From NCBI GenBank assembly GCA_028700905.1, contig JAQVRT010000026.1:1-10148 (forward strand): DNA of 10,148 nt, read 5' to 3'. The notes below the pieces were generated by a model that was given only the letters and a program-made list of their open reading frames with translations, searched no databases and was not told where the DNA came from. The translations under genes were made by a program, and so were the position numbers. Shown one piece after another: positions 1 to 10,148 of this stretch. This stretch comes from Candidatus Iainarchaeum sp. (lineage in GTDB: Archaea > Iainarchaeota > Iainarchaeia > Iainarchaeales > CSSED10-239). Within the stretch, counting starts at the first letter, position 1; each line of letters starts with the position of its first letter.

Positions 1-1
1 T

Positions 2-400
2 GGTCAAGCAAAAGGTACATATACAACTTTCCATTCTCAAAGTGCTAATGAAGCTTTATTAAGGTTTAAGTCATATGGTGTTTTAGAAACTGATTTAGGT
101 GTAATTGATTTAATTATAACTCAAAGAAGATATAATAAATATTTAAAAGGTAAATCTATTGATTTAAGAAATATTACTGAAATCTGTGAAGTTATATATA
201 AAGATGGAAAAATTTCTTTAAATGTTTTATTTTATTTTGATATTTATAAAAATAAATTAATTAAAGTTAATGATTCTATAAAAATCTTTGAAAAATTAAA
301 ATTTGCATTTGATATTAAAAATAAAAAAGATTATCTTAAGATTTATAAAAAACAAGAAAAAATAATTGATGAATTGTTACTTAAAAAAGATTATGATTGA
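2..400 (+). CDS. Type II/IV secretion-family ATPase (archaeal FlaI/TadA/VirB11-like pilus-assembly ATPase), C-terminal 132 codons; 5' end lies outside the window
   Basis: Absent from the supplied track because it has no start in the window. Frame 2 is open from nt 2 to TGA 398-400. Hand translation: GQAKGTYTTFHSQSANEALLRFKSYGVLETDLGVIDLIITQRRYNKYLKGKSIDLRNITEICEVIYKDGKISLNVLFYFD... The G..G..TTFHS.SA.EALLR stretch resembles the His-box region of secretion NTPases. The stop overlaps the start region of the first of two T2SSF-like membrane protein genes. Confidence 0.55.
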   Translation, partial: GQAKGTYTTFHSQSANEALLRFKSYGVLETDLGVIDLIITQRRYNKYLKGKSIDLRNITEICEVIYKDGKISLNVLFYFDIYKNKLIKVNDSIKIFEKLKFAFDIKNKKDYLKIYKKQEKIIDELLLKKDYD

Positions 401-1139
401 TTATATTTTTTTAAAGAAAGAAATTTTTACAAGAAAGAACTTTTTGTTATTTATTATTCTCTATTTAGTAATTTTAATTATTTTTTTATTAATTGATTCA
501 GTGGTTATTAGTTTATCTTATAGTTATTTATTTAATTTATTTATAATGTTTTTCTTTATGTTCTTTTTTATTATTTTTTTTAAATACAAGATTAAGCTTC
601 AAAATCATCAAAGACAAATAAATAAAGAAATTCCTTTCTTTTTAAATAACCTTGCAAACGATTTAGATAAGAATATTTCTTTAAAAATTGCTTTAGAAAA
701 TAGAGTTGATTCTTCTTTAATAGGTCAAATTATTAAAAAAGTTTTATATAAAGTAGATGTCTTAGGTTATTCTCTTTCTGAATCTTTTATTTCTGTTGGT
801 GTTGAAAATTCTGATTTAAAGAGAGTTTTTTATCAGATTGAAGATGTTTTGTCAACTGGTTCTTTAAATAAATCTGAATCTTTAAGAACATTATCTTCAA
901 GTATTATTGAAAAACAAAATTATTTAATTAAAAACTATTCCACTAAATTAAGTCTTTTATCTTTAATCTATATTGTTGTTTCTGCAATTGTTCCTGCTTT
1001 GTTTTTAATGTTTTTATTAGTTGGGAGTAATTTTTTAGAATTATCGTTTACTCCTTTATCTGTTATTTTTATAATTGTTATTTTATTTCCAATAATTGAT
1101 ATGTTTATATTTTTAACAATGAAGGCAAATCTTCCATAA
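366..1139 (+). CDS. T2SSF-domain polytopic membrane protein (TadB-like half of a type IV filament platform)
   Basis: ORF track. It has N-terminal hydrophobic helices, a soluble helical domain with the T2SSF-like motif EIPFFLNNLANDLDKNISLKIALEN, and then two C-terminal TM helices. The track start at 366 is TTG. ATG 369 or ATG 393 (ATGATTGA overlap with the ATPase stop at 398-400) are equally plausible starts. Confidence 0.6.
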   Translation: MMNCYLKKIMIDYIFLKKEIFTRKNFLLFIILYLVILIIFLLIDSVVISLSYSYLFNLFIMFFFMFFFIIFFKYKIKLQNHQRQINKEIPFFLNNLANDLDKNISLKIALENRVDSSLIGQIIKKVLYKVDVLGYSLSESFISVGVENSDLKRVFYQIEDVLSTGSLNKSESLRTLSSSIIEKQNYLIKNYSTKLSLLSLIYIVVSAIVPALFLMFLLVGSNFLELSFTPLSVIFIIVILFPIIDMFIFLTMKANLP

Positions 1140-1161
1140 ATAAAAATGAGAGTAAATAATT

Positions 1162-1866
1162 ATGAAATTAATGAAGTATGTAAATTACTTATTTGGAGAT
1201 TATTTTTTTAGTATTAAGAGAAAGAAATTTGAAGATGCTTTAATAGATGAAGTTTTAAGAATCTCTGGGTTTGTTAAAACAAATGATCTAAAGGTTATTT
1301 TAGTAAAGCTTGCATCTTCCAGTAATCAATTAATTTCTTCTGAATTTAAATTAATTTTAAATAAAATAAACAAAGGGCATACCCCAAAAGAAGTGTTTAA
1401 TATTTTAAAAAATAAATATAATTCTTCTTTTCTTTCAAATTTTTTAGATCTTTTAGAATATTCTGTTTTTACTGGAACAGTAACTTCTAAAGATTATAAA
1501 AACTTAGTTAAAGATTTTTTAAAATCAAGAGAATTGTTTGATGAAAGAACTTCAATTCTTTTAATGCAAAAATATACTATTCTTTTTGCAGGAGGTTTTA
1601 TTGTTCCTGGGATTTTAGGGGTTGTAATTTCTTTGGTTAAAAGTTTAACTGGAATTGTTGATATTTCAGTTGTGGGTTTAACTTCTAATTCTAGTTTGTT
1701 TATTGTAAGTTATTATTGTGCAATTGTTTATTTAGTTGAATATGTTATAATTTCTTCAATTTATTTATCACAGATTGATAGTAATTCAAAGAAAGTTTGG
1801 ATTTATTTATGTTTTTTACTTCCAGTAAGTCTTTTAATCTTTTTTGTATCTAGTTATATAGTTTAG
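1162..1866 (+). CDS. Second T2SSF-like membrane protein (TadC-like half of the platform)
   Basis: ORF track. The N-terminal soluble helical domain of about 135 aa (EFKLILNKINKGHTPKEVFNIL resembles the G-x-s/t-x-x-E-A/V motif of T2SSF domains) is followed by three TM helices. It lies 22 nt after the previous gene on the same strand. Confidence 0.5.
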   Translation: MKLMKYVNYLFGDYFFSIKRKKFEDALIDEVLRISGFVKTNDLKVILVKLASSSNQLISSEFKLILNKINKGHTPKEVFNILKNKYNSSFLSNFLDLLEYSVFTGTVTSKDYKNLVKDFLKSRELFDERTSILLMQKYTILFAGGFIVPGILGVVISLVKSLTGIVDISVVGLTSNSSLFIVSYYCAIVYLVEYVIISSIYLSQIDSNSKKVWIYLCFLLPVSLLIFFVSSYIV

Positions 1867-1896
1867 ATATCTTAAAAAGAAGAATTAAGAAAGCTT

Positions 1897-2499
1897 ATGT
1901 TTGAAGAATTGATTTTATTTTTGTCTGATTATTTAACTGGATTTGTTGGACATTTATTAGTTTTTTTATTAATGACTATTGAAAGTTCATTTATCCCTTT
2001 CCCTTCTGAGATTGTAATGGTTCCTGCAGGAACTTTTGCATATGTAGGTAATTTAAATATATTTCTTGTAATTCTTTTAGGAACTTTAGGTTCTGTTTTT
2101 GGTGCATTAATAAATTATTCTATAGGTTATTATTTAGGAAGGAGATATCTTTTAAGACACCAAAGAATATTTTTTATAAATGTTTCTCATTTAGAAAAAG
2201 CTGAGTTTTTTTTTAAAAAATATGGTAGTTCTGCAACTTTTTTTGCAAGGTTAATACCTGTTGTAAGACAGTATATTTCTATTCCGGCTGGGTTTTCTAA
2301 AATGCCTTTAAAAAACTTTATTCTTTATACTTTTTTAGGATCTTTTTTATGGGTTTCTTTTTTAACAATTCTTGGTTATAAGCTTGGAGAGGAAATTTCA
2401 AAATCAGTTTTAAATTATTTTAATGTTTTAATGATTGTTTTAGTTGGTTTAGTTGTGTTATCTATTGCTTTTTGGTATTTTTTAAAAAAGACAAAATAA
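1897..2499 (+). CDS. DedA/VTT (SNARE-associated) family membrane protein
   Basis: ORF track. DedA signatures are present: ESSFIPFPSEIVMVPAG near the N-terminus and FFARLIPVVRQYISIPAG in the middle. About 200 aa with 4-5 hydrophobic segments. Confidence 0.8.
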   Translation: MFEELILFLSDYLTGFVGHLLVFLLMTIESSFIPFPSEIVMVPAGTFAYVGNLNIFLVILLGTLGSVFGALINYSIGYYLGRRYLLRHQRIFFINVSHLEKAEFFFKKYGSSATFFARLIPVVRQYISIPAGFSKMPLKNFILYTFLGSFLWVSFLTILGYKLGEEISKSVLNYFNVLMIVLVGLVVLSIAFWYFLKKTK

Positions 2500-2595
2500 C
2501 CTGTGTTTTTTAGATGAAATTTTATAAGGAGATACAAATATAAATGTTTTTGTGCATTAATTTATTTATAGTTTAACTATTTAATTTAGTATAAA

Positions 2596-2603
2596 TTTAT
2601 AAT
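2596..2603 (+). promoter_or_regulatory. TATA-like box (tttataat) about 24 nt upstream of tRNA-Asp
   Basis: The position relative to the mature tRNA 5' end matches an archaeal TATA box, and a near-identical tttataag sits 26 nt upstream of tRNA-Ser. In DNA this AT-rich the match could be chance. Confidence 0.3.
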
Positions 2604-2619
2604 ATTTAAATAAAGTAAA

Positions 2620-2691
2620 GCCCCAGTAGTCTATCGGTTAGGATACGACCCTGTCAAGGTTGTGGGGCGGGTTCGACTCCCGCCTGGGGCG
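2620..2691 (+). tRNA. tRNA-Asp (anticodon GTC), 72 nt, no encoded CCA
   Basis: Folded by hand. Acceptor stem GCCCCAG (2620-2626) pairs with CTGGGGC (2684-2690), discriminator G2691. Anticodon stem CGACC/GGTTG with loop CTGTCAA (GTC at 2653-2655). T arm GCGGG-TTCGACT-CCCGC. D stem is 4 bp with two G.T pairs. Confidence 0.9.
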
Positions 2692-2802
2692 CTCTTTAAT
2701 CTTTTTTTAAAAATTTTCTTAATTTTTAACTATTTTTTATCAAAGTTTCGCAATGTTTCACCTAATCTATTTAAATAATAATGTTTATAATTATTTTGTA
2801 GT

Positions 2803-2859
2803 TTATAACTTAATGTAGCTTTAATTATTTTTAGAAAGCTTATTTTACATAAGTTATAA
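2803..2859. repeat. Imperfect 57-bp inverted repeat / hairpin upstream of the 515-aa secreted-protein gene
   Basis: ttataactt(a)atgta (2803-2817) is the reverse complement of tacataagttataa (2846-2859) apart from one bulged A. A nested arm pair agcttt (2817-2822) / aaagct (2835-2840) adds 6 bp. About 19 paired positions in total. The repeat ends 34 nt before ATG 2893. Confidence 0.35.
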
Positions 2860-2877
2860 TTTTTTTAAAAAATAGAA

Positions 2878-2883
2878 AGGTGG
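2878..2883 (+). promoter_or_regulatory. Shine-Dalgarno-like aggtgg, 9 nt before ATG 2893
   Basis: The same G/AGGTG-type element occurs with a 9-10 nt spacer at 8913-8917 (gene 8927), 9675-9680 (gene 9690) and 8747-8752 on the minus strand (gene 8736). Confidence 0.45.
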
Positions 2884-2892
2884 TAATAACAT

Positions 2893-4440
2893 ATGAATAT
2901 TTTAAAAAAAATAATTCCAGTTATTCTGTTAGCTTTTATATTTGTTGCTGGAACTTTAGCTCTTCCTTCAATAAATGCAGATAATATAACAGAAATGATT
3001 GTAATTGATGAAAATACCCCAAATCTTAATGTGAATGCAAATATTACTATAGATACAATTGATAATTCTCAAGGAAATATTGATGAAATCTGTCCTGCTG
3101 TTTGTGTGCCTATGTGGGTTATTTCTCCAAAAGTAATTGATTCTCAAATTGCAATTACTGATTCAGAAGTTTCTTCTCGTGCTGCAGTAAATTCTAATTC
3201 AGTTTCTGATAAAAAAGAAATAGAATATACTTGTGAATTTATAGAATGTGGAAGTGGTTGTGGAGTTGACAATATTAAATCTTTTGAAACTGAACAAGAA
3301 TGTAAGATTGGTATTGAAAAATTACTTGAAAATAATAAACCTCCAGTAACTGAAGATAAATTAGGTTTAAGTGTAAAGTTTACTCCTGTTGTAAATGATA
3401 ATTCTGGATTTATTTATGAAAATTCAAAAATACATGCAAGAGTAGTTTCTTCAAAAGAACTTTTAAAAGAAGAATATAATTTAGTTTTTAAAATGACTCC
3501 TTTATTTGATGTTTCAACTTCTGATAAAGTAGTTTACTTAATGGTAGATCGAGAAGGTGGGATTACAGTTCCAACAGAAAGAGATGATTCTAGTGTTTCT
3601 GTAAATAAATCTTCTGAAATTGATGTTTCAACTGTTAAAGCTGAAGTTTATACTCAAGTATCTTCTTCACAAAATTTAGAATCTATTAAAAATATTGAAA
3701 GAGTTAGAGCATCTGTTTCTGCTTCAAATCAAGTAAATAATTCTAATTCAGGATCAGTTTCAGCAAATACATCAGTTGCTAATAGAAATCAAGCAAATAG
3801 TGTTTTACCTGAAATGAGAAGAGTATACACTTATAATTATACAGTGTCTATTAAAGAAAATCTTGCTTTAATTGAAAAAGTATTTGGAAAAGAATTTAGA
3901 GATAATAAATATTCCATTGAAGTAAGTTTAATTAATAGAAGAATAGTTGATAGTCAAGATCCTCTTTACAAAACTATTGTTTCTGAAAAGTTTGTTGTAG
4001 CTTTTGCTCCAATTGATTCTCTTCCAGAACAAGCACAAGAACAATTACAAAATAAAATTATTGCTCAAGAACAAGTAAAGATATCTAATGTTTCAATTAA
4101 TGCTGAAGCTAAAAAAGACCTTAGAAAAGAGAAAGGTAAAGATGTTTTAATTGAGACTTTAGAAGACTATGAAGTGTTTGCAAATGAAAACATGACTGAA
4201 ATGTATGTTTCAAATAATGAAAAGGTTAGAAAAATAAAACCAATTAATAATGTTTTAATTGAAAATAATATTAAAACAGAAAATGTTATTGGAAATGTTG
4301 AACTTGTTTCTGTAGATAATAAACTTGAATATATTTTAAAAGTTAAAGAACAAAGAAAATTGTTTGGGTTTATTCCTTTTGGACATAGAGAAAAGTATGT
4401 TTCTTTAAATGCATCTGAAGATATAGAGATAACTGAATAG
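2893..4440 (+). CDS. Secreted hypothetical protein (signal peptide, N-terminal 6-Cys cluster, Ser/Asn/Val-rich low-complexity segments)
   Basis: ORF track. N-terminus MNILKKIIPVILLAFIFVAGTLALPSINA/DN looks like a cleavable signal peptide. SD at 2878-2883. A T-rich tract follows directly after the stop. No family recognised. The C-terminal LEYILKVKEQRKLFGFIPFG is only vaguely PepSY-like. Confidence 0.6.
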   Translation: MNILKKIIPVILLAFIFVAGTLALPSINADNITEMIVIDENTPNLNVNANITIDTIDNSQGNIDEICPAVCVPMWVISPKVIDSQIAITDSEVSSRAAVNSNSVSDKKEIEYTCEFIECGSGCGVDNIKSFETEQECKIGIEKLLENNKPPVTEDKLGLSVKFTPVVNDNSGFIYENSKIHARVVSSKELLKEEYNLVFKMTPLFDVSTSDKVVYLMVDREGGITVPTERDDSSVSVNKSSEIDVSTVKAEVYTQVSSSQNLESIKNIERVRASVSASNQVNNSNSGSVSANTSVANRNQANSVLPEMRRVYTYNYTVSIKENLALIEKVFGKEFRDNKYSIEVSLINRRIVDSQDPLYKTIVSEKFVVAFAPIDSLPEQAQEQLQNKIIAQEQVKISNVSINAEAKKDLRKEKGKDVLIETLEDYEVFANENMTEMYVSNNEKVRKIKPINNVLIENNIKTENVIGNVELVSVDNKLEYILKVKEQRKLFGFIPFGHREKYVSLNASEDIEITE

Positions 4441-4474
4441 TTATTTCTCTTTTTTTTCTTTTTTTTATTTTTTT
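4441..4474 (+). terminator. Oligo-T tract (archaeal-style terminator candidate) after the 515-aa gene
   Basis: ttatttctcttttttttcttttttttattttttt immediately follows the TAG stop. Confidence 0.35.
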
Positions 4475-4552
4475 AACTTTAAATATTTTTTAACTTAACC
4501 TCTTTTATAAGAATAAAAGCTTTTATAAATATTTAATATACTATATATTATT

Positions 4553-5485
4553 ATGAAATATTATAAGTTTCTTTCACTATTGTTTATATTTTTTATATCT
4601 TTTAATCTCTATGCATACAATATTGAAAAAATAGATACTTTAATAGTAATTAGAGAAGATGGTGTTTTACAAATTTCTGATAAGATTCTTTTTACAGAGG
4701 TTGTAAAGTCTGACCAAATAGTTCTCTCTATTGTTCCTGTTTATGATTTAAAAATAAAAAGTGATTATAAAGATCTTAACTATTCTTATTCTTTAGATAA
4801 TTTAACTATTAATGCATCTGATTGTTGTATTTTAGATAATACTCTTTCTCTTGAAATTATATATTTAACAGATGTTTTTTCTTACAAGAATGAAAATGTA
4901 TGGTCTATTAATTATATTCCAATATTTAGAGAGTATACAGATTCTTTTGTTTTAAGATTTCCTAAAAATACTGAAATTAATAATTTGTCTGTTGATTATA
5001 AGTTTGTTGAAATTGTAAATAACCACTTTGTTTTAAATATTAATGAAACAGTTTCAAAAGTAGATGTTAGTTATTCTATCAATCGTCCTGGCATTGAGGA
5101 AAATTCTTTTAATTGGAGTTTATTTTTTATAGTTTTCTTTGTATTTTTTATCTCTTCTTTTTTAATCAGAAGATATGTTTTTTTAAAAAAGAGTAAATCT
5201 TCTTCTTTCAAAAATACAGATAATAATTTGTCTAAAGAAAACTTTCTTTCTAAAGAAAATAAAGAAGATCTTCTTTTAGGACTTAATGAAAATGAGCAGA
5301 AAATAATTAAGATAATTCTTGAAAAAAACGGTATGTTGCAAAAGAATCTTTCAAAAGAATGTTTCCTTCCAAAAGGAACAGTTTCAAGAAATCTTAAAAA
5401 ACTTGAAAGTAAAGGGTATATTGAGATTAAAAGGTATGGTGTTAATAAGAAAGTTTTTTTAGGAGAAGTTTTTTTAAAAAAGTAA
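4553..5485 (+). CDS. Membrane-tethered transcriptional regulator: signal peptide + extracytoplasmic beta-rich domain + one TM helix + C-terminal winged helix-turn-helix (COG2512-like architecture)
   Basis: ORF track. Signal-like N-terminus MKYYKFLSLLFIFFISFNLYA. TM helix WSLFFIVFFVFFISSFLI (about nt 5114-5167) is followed by the positive cluster RRYVFLKKSK, consistent with a cytoplasmic C-terminus. C-terminal NENEQKIIKIILEKNGMLQKNLSKECFLPKGTVSRNLKKLESKGYIEIKRYGVNKKVFL (about nt 5279-5461) has the MarR/ArsR/TrmB-type wHTH pattern. There is no SD; a TATA-like ttttataaata lies about 25-30 nt upstream, so the mRNA may be leaderless. Confidence 0.65.
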   Translation: MKYYKFLSLLFIFFISFNLYAYNIEKIDTLIVIREDGVLQISDKILFTEVVKSDQIVLSIVPVYDLKIKSDYKDLNYSYSLDNLTINASDCCILDNTLSLEIIYLTDVFSYKNENVWSINYIPIFREYTDSFVLRFPKNTEINNLSVDYKFVEIVNNHFVLNINETVSKVDVSYSINRPGIEENSFNWSLFFIVFFVFFISSFLIRRYVFLKKSKSSSFKNTDNNLSKENFLSKENKEDLLLGLNENEQKIIKIILEKNGMLQKNLSKECFLPKGTVSRNLKKLESKGYIEIKRYGVNKKVFLGEVFLKK

Positions 5486-5531
5486 AAAAATACCTTTAAA
5501 TACTTTTAGAAGCATAAATATTTACTAATTG

Positions 5532-5539
5532 TTTATAAG
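5532..5539 (+). promoter_or_regulatory. TATA-like box (tttataag) 26 nt upstream of tRNA-Ser
   Basis: Same sequence class and spacing as the box upstream of tRNA-Asp. Confidence 0.3.
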
Positions 5540-5557
5540 AAGAATATAACAAATAGA

Positions 5558-5640
5558 GCAGAGGTGGCAGAGTGGTCAAACGCGCTAGCCTGCTAAGCTA
5601 GAGTCTCACGACTACACGGGTTCGAATCCCGTCCTCTGCG
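5558..5640 (+). tRNA. tRNA-Ser (anticodon GCT), type II with long variable arm, 83 nt, no encoded CCA
   Basis: Folded by hand. Acceptor stem GCAGAGG (5558-5564) pairs with CCTCTGC (5633-5639), discriminator G5640. Anticodon stem CTAGC/GCTAG with loop CTGCTAA (GCT at 5592-5594). Variable arm AGTC-TCAC-GACT. T arm ACGGG-TTCGAAT-CCCGT. The D stem is weak (G-C, C-G, then A.C). Confidence 0.9.
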
Positions 5641-5642
5641 CT
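5595..5642 (+). repeat. Left copy of a perfect 48-bp direct repeat (tRNA-Ser positions 37 to 3' end plus 2 nt); putative attL
   Basis: Compared base by base with 7990-8037: 48/48 identical. Flanking bases differ on both sides (T5594 vs A7989; T5643 vs A8038). Confidence 0.9.
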
Positions 5643-5830
5643 TTAACTGGTTTAAGTCAGGTTTAAAGTGCGATGCTTTTGTATCTTAAATATTTTTTTA
5701 AATTAAAATAAAACTAAATATGTTTTTCTTAAATATAATCAAATATTTATAATTATAAATAAATAGTAATTAATTTAAAGTTTATTATTATTTATAATAC
5801 TTATAAAGTATATTTATATTTAGGCTAGAG

Positions 5831-7972
5831 GTGAGTTTTATTAAAAAATATTTATTATTTTTTATAGTTTTTTTATTTTTAATTGGTATAATTTTATCTG
5901 TTTTTTTTATTAATTCTAAAATAGGATATGCAACAAAAAGTTTAAATTTAAATAATAAAACTGATAGTTTATCTGAATTTAAAATTCCTACAAAAGAATC
6001 TTTAGATAATAGTCTTATTTCACAAAGATTTACTGAAAATACTAAAATTATTTTTACACTAAATGAGCCAATAAATGCAATGGCAGTATCTGGAAATTTA
6101 ACTTTATTATCAAATGTAGGTTTAGTTAGAATTATACTTGTAGATAAAAATAATAAAGAATATTTAGTTTATGAAATGGATAGTTTATTAGCAAAAAATA
6201 ATAAATACATTAATTTTGAAAATATATGTGAAGAAACTTGTATTTTAGATCAGTCAATAACTCCTGTTGCAATTAAAATACAATTAGAAGATGCTATATT
6301 AAATATTTCAACAGTTAATACACTTTCTCAATCTAAATCATTTACAAAAATTAAAGATATTAAAAATTATAAACAACAAATGTTAAGATCACAAGATCAA
6401 GCTAAGATAGAAAAATATAACTTTTCTCAAGACAGTTGGATTGCAGGAGAAACTTCTGTTTCAAGTTTATCTTATGAAGAGCAAAAAAAATTATTTAAAA
6501 ATCAAGATGGTGTTATTCCTGAATATCTTCCAAATCTTCAAGGTTTTTTAAATTACAAAGGTGGAATATTTGTTTTAGCAGAAACAAATAAAGATAATTT
6601 AAAATCTACCATTCCAGAAATTTCTGAAGAACCTGATTTAATTCTTCCAAATTCTTGGGATTGGAGAAATGTACACGGAGAGAATTGGTTGACCTCTGTA
6701 AAAGATCAAGGATCTGCTGGAACTTGTTGGGCTCATTCAAATGTAGGGACATTAGAATCTCAGATAAACCTCTATTACAATCAACACATCAATTTAGATT
6801 TATCTGAACAAATGCTAGTTGATTGTCTAAATGAAGGCCCAATCGAGGAGTTAAGTCAAATACGTCCAGAATGTAGCGGAGAAAATAGCTGTTATCCAGG
6901 AAGTCATTATTGTGACATAATATATGAAGGTATTGCAGATGAAGCTTGTGATCCTTATGTTCAAAGAGAATTTACATATAATCCTAGTGTTTGTGATTAT
7001 AATCATATTTGTAATGATTGGAGTTTAAGGAGTTGGAAAATTTCTGATTTTCACGATTATAAATTTGGTCATGATTATGGAACACCTAATTGTCAAAAAC
7101 AAACAATGGATACAACAGAAGAAGAATTTAAAAGAGTTTTGATAGAAAAAGGGCCTCTGTATAGTGCAATAAGATCTTGGAATCATGCAATGATATTGGT
7201 TGGTTATAATAATGTAGGAGATTGGAATGGTATAGAATTTTGCTCTAGTATTTATTCATATCCATATGGGAGTTTTTGTTCTGGGAGTAGTTGTTTAGAA
7301 AGAGATTGTTCAATTTATTCTATTGGGGATGAGATTAAAACCTGTGGTTTAATTGAAAAATTAGATTTATCTTTTCAATCAGATATAAGAACATATACTT
7401 GTACTAATACTTCTTATGGTAAATTATGGGTGTATTCTGATACTGAATATTGTGATGAAAATGAAATATGTGTTGATAATAGTTGTCAAAACATTAGTGA
7501 AATAGAACCTGGATATCAGATTTGTAAAAATCTTAATCCATCTGATACTTCTTATTTTTATTATTTATCTGAAGTTAGTGAATATACTCCCGGGAATGGA
7601 GATGTTATTTGGATTTTTAAAAATAGTTGGGGGGAAGATTGGGGAGAAGAAGGTTATGTGATGATATCAGTTAGTCTACAAAATCTAGGTTATGGTTCAA
7701 TACCTCTAGGTCCATTTACTCCTCCTGAAAATACCGCTTATTGGCCAGAAGGTTTTGATAATACTATTAATTGTGAAGACATAGATGGTGATAAATACTG
7801 TAATTGGGGAATATCTGAAGAAAAACCAAGTACTTGTCCTTCTTTTTGTAAAGAAGAAAAAGATTGTGATGATTCTAATCCAAATATTTTTGGTTTTATT
7901 TCTGAAACAAATTTAAATTGTAGAAAGAATATTAATATAAGTATTATTTATGACCAAAACTTACAAAGATAA
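5831..7972 (+). CDS. Membrane-anchored/secreted papain-family (MEROPS C1) cysteine peptidase with a large Cys-rich insert and a Cys-rich C-terminal extension
   Basis: ORF track. N-terminal hydrophobic anchor LLFFIVFLFLIGIILSVFFI. Canonical C1 motifs are present. LPNSWDWRNVHGENWLTSVKDQGSAGTCWAHS carries the oxyanion Gln293 and catalytic Cys299 (tgt 6725-6727). NHAMILVGYN carries His452 (cat 7184-7186). IFKNSWGEDWGEEGY carries Asn598 (aat 7622-7624). The start is uncertain: GTG 5831 overlaps a gaggtg (5828-5833) identical to the SD of gene 9690, so either GTG is used on a leaderless or short-leader mRNA, or in-frame ATT 5840 is the start. Confidence 0.85.
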   Translation: MSFIKKYLLFFIVFLFLIGIILSVFFINSKIGYATKSLNLNNKTDSLSEFKIPTKESLDNSLISQRFTENTKIIFTLNEPINAMAVSGNLTLLSNVGLVRIILVDKNNKEYLVYEMDSLLAKNNKYINFENICEETCILDQSITPVAIKIQLEDAILNISTVNTLSQSKSFTKIKDIKNYKQQMLRSQDQAKIEKYNFSQDSWIAGETSVSSLSYEEQKKLFKNQDGVIPEYLPNLQGFLNYKGGIFVLAETNKDNLKSTIPEISEEPDLILPNSWDWRNVHGENWLTSVKDQGSAGTCWAHSNVGTLESQINLYYNQHINLDLSEQMLVDCLNEGPIEELSQIRPECSGENSCYPGSHYCDIIYEGIADEACDPYVQREFTYNPSVCDYNHICNDWSLRSWKISDFHDYKFGHDYGTPNCQKQTMDTTEEEFKRVLIEKGPLYSAIRSWNHAMILVGYNNVGDWNGIEFCSSIYSYPYGSFCSGSSCLERDCSIYSIGDEIKTCGLIEKLDLSFQSDIRTYTCTNTSYGKLWVYSDTEYCDENEICVDNSCQNISEIEPGYQICKNLNPSDTSYFYYLSEVSEYTPGNGDVIWIFKNSWGEDWGEEGYVMISVSLQNLGYGSIPLGPFTPPENTAYWPEGFDNTINCEDIDGDKYCNWGISEEKPSTCPSFCKEEKDCDDSNPNIFGFISETNLNCRKNINISIIYDQNLQR

Positions 7973-7989
7973 ATGCACTTAATTTAATA

Positions 7990-8037
7990 AAGCTAGAGTC
8001 TCACGACTACACGGGTTCGAATCCCGTCCTCTGCGCT
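7990..8037 (+). repeat. Orphan 3' half of tRNA-Ser(GCT), exact copy of 5595-5642; putative attR
   Basis: It starts exactly at tRNA position 37, the first base after the anticodon, and runs through the variable arm, T arm, acceptor 3' strand, discriminator and 2 trailer nt. No 5' half is adjacent; the upstream sequence is the protease stop plus AT-rich DNA. Confidence 0.9.
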
Positions 8038-8161
8038 AACCGGTTTCGCTCGGTTAACGCGCAATAGTCCTTTTAAGAAAAGTGCTTCAAAGAAAAAAGA
8101 ACTGGTTTTGGTCAGTTGACACCCAATAGTCCTTTTAAGAAAAGTGCTTTAAAGAAAAAAG
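8038..8161 (+). repeat. Tandem repeat, 2 x 62 bp (8038-8099, 8100-8161), homologous in its 5' part to the trailer of the intact tRNA-Ser (5645-5668)
   Basis: Hand alignment gives 54/62 identities with no gaps. Seven of the eight differences fall in the first 24 nt. Each unit begins with a hairpin: aaccg-gtttcgct-cggtt in the first and aactg-gttttggt-cagtt in the second. The only stem difference is a compensatory C-G to T-A change. The last 38 nt (caatagtccttttaagaaaagtgctt[c/t]aaagaaaaaag) differ at one position. Confidence 0.85.
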
Positions 8162-8189
8162 AAGGTTATTTTAATAATTAATTCTTTTA

Positions 8190-8215
8190 GGAAAGAAATT
8201 TTGTTCTTCCTTTCC
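8190..8215. terminator. Hairpin (ggaaag ... ctttcc, 6-bp stem, 14-nt loop) in the convergent intergenic region, flanked by T/A runs
   Basis: Inverted repeat seen by eye. A6 at 8242-8247 gives T6 on the minus strand right after the stop of gene 8251..8736. Function as a terminator is a guess. Confidence 0.25.
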
Positions 8216-8250
8216 CAAAGATTATTCTTTTCTATTTTTTTAAAAAAGAT

Positions 8251-8736
8251 TTAACAAATACCTTCTTTAACTATAGGTATTTCTCCTGCAACACATGGGT
8301 TTGAATAGGTTATTCCATTTTCTCCACATACAGGGTTATATTCTTTTGTACAAACTTTATCTTCAAAGATATATTCTCCTTTAAGGCATTCTCCTCTGTA
8401 AAACATCCATTCTTCACACTCTGAATTATCTTTAAAGACACAAACTCCATATTCTCCTTTGTCTGTGTTTCTTATATCTAAAGTTCCTTCATTTTCTATA
8501 CAGAAAGTAGATGCTGGATTTGCAACTTCTAAGTTTTCACATTCTCCTATATGTAAGATTTCTGCCTTTTGTGCATCAGCCATACATTGATTACCATAAG
8601 TAACACCATCTGTTCCACAAACAGGCATGTATTCCATAGTACATGCAACATTTTCAGTTTCTTTGTTTAATACTATAAATGTTGTTATTATTCCTATTAT
8701 TAGTATTATTCCAATTATATAATATATTTTTTTCAT
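8251..8736 (-). CDS. Membrane-anchored Kazal - DUF333 - Kazal protein (putative serine-protease inhibitor)
   Basis: ORF track. N-terminal anchor [20 protein letters not shown]. Residues 32-66, [35 protein letters not shown], and 129-161, [33 protein letters not shown], match the Kazal core (compare ovomucoid third domain [20 protein letters not shown]). Residues 72-117, [46 protein letters not shown], match the DUF333/COG3042 pattern (NPAS..C...G......G..G.C.F.D.S.C.EW...RGEC). SD aaggtg lies 10 nt upstream on the minus strand. Confidence 0.75.
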
Positions 8737-8810
8737 ATTGTTTTTTCACCTTTATATTTTTTTAAATAAATATATATGCAAATAATACTTTATAAATAGA
8801 AATTTATTAA

Positions 8811-8831
8811 AAGGTTTTTTCCTTATTATTT
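8811..8831 (+). repeat. Copy 1 of the 21-bp motif aaggttttttccttattattt (divergent promoter region, 7 nt upstream of a TATA-like tttataaa at 8839-8846)
   Basis: Exact match to 9599-9619, found by eye. Confidence 0.7.
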
Positions 8832-8926
8832 TTGTATATTTATAAATATATAGTATCTAAGATATATCTGTTAATTTAAATAATTAAGTTATTTTAAATT
8901 TATAAAAAAAAAGAGGTATTAAATTT

Positions 8927-9559
8927 ATGAAAAAAATATATAGAACGTTACTAATAATTCTTGGAATTTTAATACTTTTAGGAGGAATATATGCTGTTGT
9001 TCTTCCTATCTTAAACCCACCAGTTGCAAGAAAACCAGCAGTCTACCTATATCCTTTACAAGATTCTTTTATTTCTGTTAATTTAGAAGTTAATGGTAAG
9101 ATTATAGAATCAATTCCAGATTATAAAGAAGGTTGGAATGTTTTTGTAACTAAAGAAGGTATTATTGAAAATAATTTAGATTATTTATTTTATGAAGCAA
9201 AGTTAAATAAATTAACAATTCCAAAAGAAGGTTTTGTAGTTTCTTCTTCTGATCTTGATTCTTGGTTTGATAAAAATCTTAAGGAAATGGGTTTAAATGA
9301 AAAAGAACTTTCTCAATTTAAGGAATATTGGATTTCTGAACTTAATGGTTCTAAGTATTATATTATAAAACTATTATCTGATGATTTTTTAACTCAAAAT
9401 ATGAATCTTTTAGTATCTCCAACTCCAGATACAATGATAAGATTAAATTTTTATTTTAAAGGTGTAGATAAAATTGTTAAGTTAGAAGAGCCTGTTATTA
9501 CAACCCCTGTAAGAAATGGTTTTACTGTTGTTGAATGGGGTGGAATCTTAGAGGAGTAA
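8927..9559 (+). CDS. Membrane-anchored hypothetical protein (single N-terminal TM helix, about 180-aa extracytoplasmic domain)
   Basis: ORF track. Anchor LLIILGILILLGGIYAVVLPIL. SD gaggt at 8913-8917 lies 9 nt before the ATG. A T-rich tract follows the stop. Motifs KPAVYLYP ... YLFYEA ... EWGG look like a conserved uncharacterised family that I cannot name. Confidence 0.6.
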   Translation: MKKIYRTLLIILGILILLGGIYAVVLPILNPPVARKPAVYLYPLQDSFISVNLEVNGKIIESIPDYKEGWNVFVTKEGIIENNLDYLFYEAKLNKLTIPKEGFVVSSSDLDSWFDKNLKEMGLNEKELSQFKEYWISELNGSKYYIIKLLSDDFLTQNMNLLVSPTPDTMIRLNFYFKGVDKIVKLEEPVITTPVRNGFTVVEWGGILEE

Positions 9560-9560
9560 T

Positions 9561-9580
9561 CCTCTTTTTTCTTTTTTTTT
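9561..9580 (+). terminator. Oligo-T tract after gene 8927..9559
   Basis: cctcttttttcttttttttt starts 2 nt after the TAA stop. Confidence 0.35.
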
Positions 9581-9598
9581 AATGAAAAAATATCCTTT

Positions 9599-9619
9599 AA
9601 GGTTTTTTCCTTATTATTT
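9599..9619 (+). repeat. Copy 2 of the 21-bp motif aaggttttttccttattattt (17 nt upstream of a TATA-like ttttatat at 9637-9644)
   Basis: Exact match to 8811-8831. Here taagg-tttttt-cctta can form a 5-bp hairpin. Confidence 0.7.
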
Positions 9620-9689
9620 ATTCCTCTTTTTAAATCTTTTTATATAATAATTAGTTAATTAAACTTATAGTTATGAGGTGATTTAAAAA

Positions 9690-10148
9690 ATGAGCTTTAA
9701 AGAACAATTAATAAGATTAAAAGAAAATTGGTTAATAATTCTTTTAGTTGTTGTTGCATTTTTAGTTTTAACTTTTTTAGTTTCAAATGGAACTAGTTAT
9801 TCTGCAAGAGATTCTTTTGCAATGAATGAGAGTGCCATGTATTCTAAATCTATGGAATATGCTGGTGGTTATGGTTTAAGCTATACTCAAGATTTTGCAC
9901 CAGAAGTTGAAGATAGAAAAATTACAAAAAATTCTAGTCTTTCTTTAGAAGTTAAAGGTGGAGAATTTACATTTGCAGATTCAAAAGTAAAGTCAATTGT
10001 TTCTTCTTCTGATTCAATAGTTTTAAATGAAAGCTTAAATACAAGAAAAAATGGTAATAAAGAAGAATTTTATGCATCTTACTCTATTAAAGTTGAATCT
10101 TCAAAACTTGATTCTGTAGTTTCTCAATTAAGAGAGATAGGTAAAGTT
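9690..10148 (+). CDS. DUF4349-like membrane-anchored protein, N-terminal 153 codons; 3' end outside the window
   Basis: Absent from the track because there is no stop in the window. ATG 9690 is preceded by gaggtg (9675-9680) with a 9-nt spacer, and the frame is open to the window end. Hand translation: MSFKEQLIRLKENWLIILLVVVAFLVLTFLVSNGTSYSARDSF...RKITKNSSLSLEVKGGEFTFADSKVKSIVSSSDSIVLNESL...FYASYSIKVESSKLDSVVSQLREIGKV. The pattern R-K-I-x-K-x-x-x-L-x-L-x-V followed by ...V....fd.....l...G.v is typical of the start of DUF4349 proteins. Confidence 0.55.
   Translation, partial: MSFKEQLIRLKENWLIILLVVVAFLVLTFLVSNGTSYSARDSFAMNESAMYSKSMEYAGGYGLSYTQDFAPEVEDRKITKNSSLSLEVKGGEFTFADSKVKSIVSSSDSIVLNESLNTRKNGNKEEFYASYSIKVESSKLDSVVSQLREIGKV

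Follow-up and report, generated by a model that had tools for sequence, protein, structure and literature searches.

We describe a composite stretch of DNA at a tRNA-Ser(GCT) gene of Candidatus Iainarchaeum sp., on a contig of 10,148 nt (JAQVRT010000026.1, assembly GCA_028700905.1; "the window" denotes this whole stretch) with a G+C content of ~25%. Here an intact tRNA gene and an orphan copy of its 3' half enclose a single gene for a C1 (papain-family) peptidase. On balance, and with modest confidence, we interpret the region as a composite, decayed integration array left at tRNA-Ser(GCT) by integrases of the Sulfolobus spindle-shaped virus (SSV) type, in which the peptidase gene would form an integrase-less module bounded by attachment (att) cores. 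An earlier note on this DNA, made from the window's sequence, had offered three explanations of the repeat: an eroded island that kept only its cargo, a non-autonomous cassette mobilised in trans, and the 3' half of a functional split tRNA. The eroded island has fared best, as part of a composite array and not as a single simple element.

A repeated tRNA 3' half around one gene

The tRNA-Ser(GCT) gene lies at 5558..5641 on the plus strand (ARAGORN; Rfam RF00005 at 5558-5640, 60.4 bits). It is intact and would be the live attachment site; its whole sequence, variable arm included, is identical in Candidatus Forterrea multitransposorum (L016; contigs and loci are cited by such numbers). The other tRNA in the window is a tRNA-Asp at 2620-2692 (ARAGORN, with Rfam in agreement). 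As the earlier note had reported, 48 nt of the tRNA-Ser gene (core copy 1, 5595..5642, plus strand) recur at 7990..8037 on the same strand (core copy 2, the orphan) with 100% identity in a repeat search and a direct-repeat period of 2395 nt. The repeat starts at 5595, the first base 3' of the anticodon (canonical position 37), and in the window it ends 2 nt beyond the discriminator, limits that agree with those given in the earlier note. A 28-nt sub-pattern of the core has two matches in the window, against 0.00 expected from shuffles. The orphan has no 5' half: ARAGORN calls no tRNA at 7990-8037, and Rfam matches the T arm only. The extent of the repeat needs one correction, which rests on the same-species assemblies that show the end of the second core (L001-L004, L051 and L060). 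There that core reads ...CTGCGTTAACC, and the shared block is 46 nt, ending at the discriminator; the full 48 nt hold for the window.

The exact peptidase was found on five other contigs and the exact upstream TrmB-like protein on 13. At least 15 independent contigs span or reach both cores, so the repeat is not a misassembly, a concern that the earlier note had raised. In every informative contig of the species (at least 15) the peptidase lies between the cores. No further copy of the core was present on at least one 368-kb contig of the species.

Between the cores lie 188 nt of AT-rich DNA, one open reading frame (ORF) and 17 nt. The ORF (5831..7972, plus strand) encodes the 713-aa peptidase (Pfam PF00112, E 1.5e-24), which has an N-terminal membrane anchor or signal, and no other ORF in this interval reaches 100 aa. 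Neither a Pfam search of the window's proteins nor tblastn with the N-terminal and C-terminal integrase parts of relatives, Int(N) and Int(C), found a recombinase between the cores, in line with the one-gene interior described before. In the rest of the window, the same tblastn queries found no recombinase beyond tRNA-derived codons and ~50 remnant codons after the orphan. As in a cis-mobilisable module, the two att cores point the same way and enclose no recombination genes.

SSV-type integrases at the same tRNA in relatives

Scans of genome and metagenome collections with the core pattern gave 42 loci. At L019, L026, L036, L038, L048 and L054, tRNA-Ser(GCT) runs on in frame into an integrase, Int(C), and the tRNA-continuous integrase frames have in common the peptide KLES.DYTGSNPVLC. 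In L036 about 130 codons can be read from the tRNA onward without a stop, and position 488 is reached before any start codon appears; so long a start-less frame in AT-rich DNA shows a coding sequence without a start of its own. The integrase proteins match Pfam PF16795 (Phage_integr_3; E 1e-25) and the structures of the SSV1 integrase catalytic domain (PDB 3UXU/3VCF/4DKS; E about 1e-9). The 62 integrase homologs form one family, with PF16795 in 60/62, and most are of Int(C) length. An unsplit homolog, P0175 (337 aa), has a ribbon-helix-helix (RHH)-like N-terminus and carries the tRNA-derived peptide mid-protein. The other half, Int(N), is seen in L034 as an ORF of 88 aa whose N-terminus is likewise RHH-like and whose frame passes through an orphan tRNA half; the flank that follows this orphan recurs unchanged behind the intact tRNA of L040. 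Orphan 3' halves that start in the anticodon loop occur in L017/L041, L031, L034, L049 and L022/L032.

An Int(C) in the tRNA frame and an Int(N) in an orphan are the defining features of SSV-type "suicidal" integrases. Judging from these loci, such PF16795 integrases targeting tRNA-Ser(GCT) are common in Forterrea/Iainarchaeum-like DPANN archaea, and they give substance to the earlier view of the repeat as the att footprint of an integrase. In this system the att core is the 3' half of the tRNA, which extends from the anticodon loop to the end of the tRNA and lies inside the integrase frame, and integration leaves two junctions: a restored tRNA with Int(C), and an orphan 3' half preceded by Int(N). 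The variable-arm allele of the tRNA tracks the type of element, L015 and L036 differing from L017, L026 and L041 in the same host flank, as it should if the 3' half of the tRNA comes from the element. The SSV1 integrase cuts at the edges of the anticodon loop, and elements with split integrases are excisable by a related exogenous integrase (PMC8371274). The same 2021 review of archaeal tyrosine recombinases places this type only in Sulfolobales, Thermococcales, Archaeoglobales and Methanosarcinales, makes no mention of DPANN, and calls SSV-type integrases a feature of hyperthermophiles (PMC8371274). No second core or complete element was found within 10.8 kb in L054/L055.

Examples of the integrase genes lie at L036:101-991, L026:6172-7080 and L034:3364-3630 (minus strand). 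Some variants have an in-frame start codon within the tRNA-derived core, such as a TTG in the variable-arm allele TCTTTGGACT (L017:94-96); in P0121 (N-terminus MGSNPILC) an ATG start lies in the T stem, with compensatory changes. The Int(C) of these variants might be translated after integration, which would make them non-suicidal. Between tRNA and orphan, L017/L041 hold a decayed element with a second, divergent tRNA-Ser(GCT) (L017:2316-2399, L041:4861-4944), transposase-like ORFs and a methyltransferase.

The orphan and the sequence that follows it

Directly after the orphan come two tandem units of 62 nt (8038..8161, plus strand; 87% identity). The direct-repeat search reported this two-copy array and Tandem Repeats Finder did not; L001 has three copies of the unit. 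In the first unit, 29/33 nt after the orphan match the integrase-frame sequence that follows the tRNA in L017, and the second matches the corresponding post-tRNA sequence of L054 at 30/33 nt. The tblastn alignment with Int(C) covers 7990-8160 (E 9e-7) and nothing beyond, and the ~50 remnant codons are interrupted by stops. These matches mark the orphan and 8038-8161 as the stump of an element's left end. From sequence comparison, then, the orphan together with the 124 nt after it appears to be the stump of an integrase gene, an attL/attP-type right arm and not host flank. The two units would be what is left of the first ~50 codons of the Int(C) frame, the integrase itself having been deleted in the window.

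The closest comparison is L006, which carries the only close peptidase ortholog (P0002, 71% aa identity) in the same position. L006 is syntenic with the window through T2SSF, VTT, TrmB, tRNA-Ser and peptidase to the same junction. Its repeat measures ~102 nt, and its orphan (8685-8787) has an altered and lengthened T loop, TTCGAAT having become TTTTAAAT. A 198-aa PF16795 gene lies 170 nt further 3'; it is N-terminally truncated, and the frame upstream of it is broken by stops. With the integrase 3' of the orphan, it lies just outside the repeat-bounded segment, and the layout places the peptidase module between the live tRNA and the junction of an older element. The complete element with both ends was not recovered, since L052/L053 extend L006 by only ~0.5 kb. 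In L052 a gene for a cyclodipeptide synthase (PF16715; L052:1710-2393, minus strand), possibly element cargo, directly follows the integrase of this L006-type genome.

These results change the polarity of the picture drawn in the earlier note, in which a single element had its attL at the tRNA and its attR at the orphan: the 5' part of the integrase frame follows the orphan, and the L006 integrase is outside the cassette. The note was right that the flanks 3' of the two cores are homologous but diverged; each contains a hairpin of the form AACYGGTTTNNNNCRGKT, which after the orphan belongs to the 62-nt unit. The left edges of the orphans, AGCCTGCT or AAGCTAGAG, agree with where SSV1 Int is reported to cleave.

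Absence of the block from Forterrea

Several proteins flanking the hotspot are nearly identical to those of Candidatus Forterrea multitransposorum (CP045477), a complete DPANN (Diapherotrites) genome: the two T2SSF-like proteins are 98-99.6% identical and the VTT protein 93.5%. Identity drops toward the tRNA, to 85% for a 515-aa protein and 61% for the TrmB-like protein, and in sliding windows nucleotide identity falls from 96-100% to 56% toward tRNA-Ser. The Forterrea sequences (L016, L043 and L039) align with 1-5646 of the window and then with 9568-10148. The block 5647..9567, which contains the peptidase gene, the orphan, the 62-nt units, a Kazal/DUF333 gene and a 210-aa gene, is absent, and the identical tRNA-Ser is followed directly by a DUF4349 gene (starting near 9691 in the window). 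The complete Forterrea genome has a single copy of the core pattern. In L040, tRNA-Ser is followed by the Kazal gene, without peptidase and without orphan. There is, in other words, a presence/absence polymorphism among relatives, with its break at the tRNA 3' end. What differs from the nearest genome is a block of 3.9 kb (5647-9567), not the isolated 2.4-kb unit of the earlier note. No empty site was seen among the contigs of the species.

The stretch 2500-5500 of the window, which encodes the 515-aa protein and the TrmB-like membrane protein, is hypervariable: strains of the species are 93% or 76% identical there, with flanks above 99%. Compared with Forterrea the same stretch is 56-90% identical and neighbouring genes 96-100%, so that divergence rises toward the hotspot.

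Age and exchange of the peptidase module

The interior of the repeat is far younger than its surroundings. At conserved residues, the fraction of codons identical between window and L006 is 0.63-0.70 in four flanking genes, against 0.61-0.66 if saturated, and 0.875 in the peptidase (n = 488), against 0.645 if saturated; peptidase and pooled flanks differ strongly (Fisher p = 1.5e-15). The AT-rich spacer (5677..5830, plus strand), presumably the promoter region of the peptidase gene, has 91% nucleotide identity to L006 over 153 aligned nt, compared with 59-83% in other intergenic regions. The last 55 peptidase codons are 98% identical, and the 17-nt junction from peptidase stop to orphan (7973..7989, plus strand), which contains CACTTAATTTA, is identical at 16/17 nt. 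Divergence is saturated in the C-terminal part of the TrmB-like gene, which sets the left limit of the young tract at the tRNA or immediately 3' of it; the right limit of the tract is the orphan. Since the interior is so much less diverged than the flanking genes, these comparisons indicate that the module was exchanged horizontally between the window and L006 lineages, long after they split.

Each genome carries its own variable-arm allele, TCTCACGA in the window and ACTTACGT in L006, on both of its cores; the difference is compensatory (AGTCTCACGACT vs AGACTTACGTCT). The finding of resident alleles on both cores in two genomes, with different alleles between them, upholds the earlier argument against a neutrally decaying duplication. 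It also means that a single site-specific crossover is insufficient, and that gene conversion or transfer between allele-matched sites is needed. We infer that gene conversion, with the selected tRNA as donor, keeps the two cores of a genome identical.

Within the peptidase gene, patches at 6780-7180 and 7660-7740 have 41-57% nucleotide identity to L006 and an aa identity of about 0.5. Synonymous identity of conserved residues stays high in these patches, and conserved residues around them have identical codons, a mosaic pattern that suggests either recombination in patches or diversifying selection on the part of this secreted protease that holds the catalytic domain.

We therefore propose, as the interpretation that best fits, a sequence of events in which the orphan and the two 62-nt units are the older left end of an element, and the peptidase module (5643-7989) sits inside an accreted array, between this junction and the live tRNA. 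The module could be what remains of a later, since stripped element that had entered the tRNA, or a gene captured by aberrant recombination at the anticodon-loop crossover point. With a native neighbour beside a secondary-site junction, considered below, these make three possible routes to the placement of the peptidase. The module is now fixed in the species, and its young interior implies that it moved between lineages in the past. Transfer may have occurred through a related integrase acting in trans to recombine the cores, or by homologous recombination anchored in the conserved cores.

Alternative explanations

A number of observations weigh against a composite array with an att-bounded module. 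No cassette-less variant was found in the species: 11/11 informative contigs from the exact TrmB-like look-up carry the peptidase, and two Logan contigs in that look-up simply end at the repeat. A viral collection searched with the 27-mer core, a degenerate core pattern and peptidase relatives held no free circular element and no matching att. The G+C content at third codon positions of the peptidase gene, 0.105, is host-like (0.07-0.14 in neighbouring genes), and a composition test gave no signal of foreign origin, so the atypical composition usual for an island is missing. No fragment of Int(N) lies upstream of the window's orphan, which is only 17 nt from the peptidase stop, and the textbook right junction of SSV-type elements is absent; the orphans of L006 and L017/L041 also have no Int(N) upstream, unlike L034-type orphans. 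A comparison by eye, with no formal alignment, showed no convincing similarity to a decayed tRNA 5' half upstream of the orphan, and a doubtful resemblance to the end of Int(N). Compared with Int(N)-bearing orphans, where identity begins at AGCCTGCT, the start of identity is shifted by 8 nt in the 3' direction, to AAGCTAGAG, in the orphans of the window, L006 and L017/L041. These 8 nt would correspond to the anticodon-loop region of the expected strand exchange, and the junction may have formed at that crossover. The flank 3' of the full tRNA is similar to the native or attR-type flanks of L014 and L017, which fits a native position of the peptidase equally well. Lastly, alleles that recombine in the ordinary homologous way could give the mosaic in the peptidase without any movement of a module.

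Several of these points are accommodated if the peptidase gene is an ordinary neighbour of tRNA-Ser, beside which an element joined its own att core and right arm, by pseudo-site integration or by aberrant excision and re-insertion. The orphan would then have come with the element, and there would be no cassette as such. We consider this unlikely. It agrees with the homology of the L006 post-tRNA flank to the native flank of L014 and the attR flank of L017, with the integrase arm after the orphan, with an orphan edge where SSV-type integrases cut, with the missing Int(N) and with the host-like composition; moreover, peptidase homologs in other DPANN genomes sit in unrelated chromosomal contexts. 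Left unexplained are the low divergence of spacer and peptidase relative to flanking genes, and the absence from closer relatives (Forterrea and L040) with a break at the tRNA 3' end. The label of host flank is itself uncertain: the "native" motif after the tRNA, a hairpin-containing unit AACTGGTTTAAGTCAGGTTTAAAGTGCGATGC at 5645..5676 (plus strand), is a degenerate copy of the ~31-nt element-arm unit seen after tRNA-Ser or orphans in relatives, homologous to the post-tRNA flanks of L006 and L014 and the attR flank of L017.

No more probable to us than a native gene is a stronger version of the array interpretation, in which the peptidase module would be a minimal mobile unit, one gene plus an att core, moved in trans between DPANN lineages by the split SSV-type integrases of co-resident elements and accreting beside their junctions at tRNA-Ser(GCT). 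If true, integrases so far described in hyperthermophiles would run cassette exchange in DPANN archaea that are not known to be thermophilic. We give somewhat less credence to a 2.4-kb module that is still active, with an SSV-type integrase acting in trans to excise it as a circle and insert it. Directly repeated cores do bound a module without a recombinase, an integrase of the right specificity adjoins in L006, the interior is younger than the flanks with tract boundaries at the cores, and trans-excision of split-integrase elements is documented (PMC8371274). A cycle-shaped Logan contig, L005, present in 3 samples, equals 5595-8019 exactly (2395 + 30 nt at k = 31) and might be taken for such a circle. 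We rejected it as evidence, because a chromosomal direct repeat with a short, repeat-rich flank clipped gives a de Bruijn graph of the same shape; the end of Logan contig L062, 30 nt into core copy 1, is what a k = 31 graph predicts. Current activity is made less likely by the module's presence in all informative contigs of the species with no empty site, by the lack of an integrase in the window and of a further core on the 368-kb contig, by core alleles that match the resident genome on both sides, unlike the outcome of a single site-specific crossover, and, in L006, by the damaged T loop of the orphan and the truncated integrase.

Homologous recombination is reported to be the main force shaping Forterrea populations and genomes (PMC5905446), and flanks are homologous after both cores, so a segmental duplication of the tRNA 3' region, made without an integrase and kept similar by gene conversion, has to be considered. 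We judge it very improbable: the left edge falls at the anticodon loop in several independent loci with Int(C) or Int(N), the sequence after the orphan is integrase-frame sequence, and an integrase gene adjoins in L006. Least credible of all is a functional RNA, whether a split-tRNA 3' half or a structured 3' end of the peptidase mRNA, despite an orphan that starts directly 3' of the anticodon and T-arm and variable-arm stems that are kept in the window and in L006. A complete tRNA-Ser(GCT) gene lies 2.4 kb upstream, ARAGORN and Rfam found no 5' half gene and no complementary leader in the window, the change to TTTTAAAT in L006 destroys the conserved TΨC loop, and equivalent orphans elsewhere are overlapped by protein-coding Int(N) frames. 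On these grounds we rejected the split tRNA proposed in the earlier note.

Flanking genes and other features

Downstream of the stump, a gene for a secreted Kazal/DUF333 protein (Pfam) lies on the minus strand at 8251..8736. The Kazal(-) gene follows the tRNA in L040 and an orphan in L034 and L049; in L041 the order is orphan, 173-aa ORF, Kazal(-). The number of Kazal-type units varies, being larger at L034:2521-3228 and L017:5210-5866 than in the window, and the L034 protein lacks the DUF333 part. A secreted protease inhibitor thus adjoins a secreted cysteine peptidase at this hotspot.

The 210-aa gene (8927..9559, plus strand), of unknown function, is a strain-variable insert with imperfect 48-nt repeats at 8800-8847 and 9588-9635. 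It is missing from most contigs of the species (among them L051 and L060), where the variable stretch corresponds to 8893-9598. Over 307 nt at its 3' end the gene shares 95% identity with a fragment that, in the distant host of L017/L041, is joined in frame to a truncated integrase, and the gene is probably recently transferred element cargo.

In many lineages a 7-bp stem with a 6-nt loop is found 1-4 nt after the 3' end of the tRNA or orphan (window 5645-5662, 8038-8055 and 8100-8117; L006:6341-6359, L040:7093-7112, L054:6882-6903). Stem changes are compensatory among lineages (AACCGG/TCGGTT, GACTGG/TCAGTC, AACTT/AAGTT), and the stem is not present in other att variants (L038, L048 and L049). 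It could be a core-type inverted repeat of the recombinase or a tRNA 3'-end signal. The 11-mer CACTTAATTTA of the junction is also found upstream of the independent class-B orphan of L017/L031/L041; we rejected it as firm evidence, as it is too short for DNA so AT-rich.

Significance and comparison with known systems

The locus offers a worked example of gene gain, trapping and shuffling at a tRNA hotspot in DPANN archaea, whose mobile elements are barely described. The relatives extend the host range of split SSV-type integrases beyond that of the 2021 review, to Forterrea/Iainarchaeum-like archaea with tRNA-Ser(GCT) as target. The secreted cysteine peptidase is a candidate host-interaction protein, one that crossed lineage boundaries and kept a host-like composition. 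The att-bounded layout leads to a concrete hypothesis, that integrase-less modules may be moved in trans. In the window itself the element is a relic, with a mechanism of a kind already known.

That kind is the SSV-type (type I, "suicidal") integrated element, with "gene capture" at archaeal tRNA genes, reportedly described by She et al. 2001, 2002, 2004 and Badel et al. 2020. As in those elements, the PF16795 integrase of the relatives resembles the catalytic domain of SSV1 Int, and the att core is the 3' part of the tRNA within the integrase ORF, Int(C) lying beside the restored tRNA and Int(N) running into the orphan. Trapped elements that decay and leave cargo between direct repeats are likewise a feature of gene capture. 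Unlike the reviewed hosts (PMC8371274), the carriers here are low-GC DPANN archaea from groundwater, sediment and activated-sludge metagenomes. The window also differs in keeping neither half of the integrase, only the ~50 remnant codons, and its orphan departs from the canonical orphans of this integrase family in the missing Int(N) and the 8-nt shift in the start of identity. Holding neither integrase nor Int(N), the window falls outside any class that is defined by either.

Split tRNA genes are known from Nanoarchaeum equitans and Caldiarchaeum. The orphan is like them in being a 3' half, from a DPANN-type archaeon, that starts beside the anticodon loop; it is unlike them in the presence of a full-length gene for the same isoacceptor, the lack of a 5' half or complementary leader, and the decay of the orphan in L006. 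With bacterial tandem tRNA islands the locus shares an intact tRNA at one end, serial orphan 3' fragments and successive modules. It differs from them in that an element-type arm, not host flank, follows the orphan, and in the host-like composition of the cargo.

In bacteria, cis-mobilisable elements (CIMEs) arise alongside the accretion of integrative and conjugative elements (ICEs) or phages, as with ICESt1/ICESt3 of Streptococcus thermophilus. The present arrangement resembles a CIME as an att-flanked module without recombination genes, in tandem with an integrase-bearing element at the same tRNA/att locus, the integrase being truncated in L006 and reduced to a stump in the window, and the module could be movable if a related integrase acted on the outer sites. 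It differs from CIMEs in being archaeal, in the split type of its integrase and in its size, a single-gene module of 2.4 kb; excision and co-transfer are putative. Taken together, these comparisons suggest that the window is a relic that would have worked like archaeal gene capture, in a lineage not covered for this integrase type by the review (PMC8371274).

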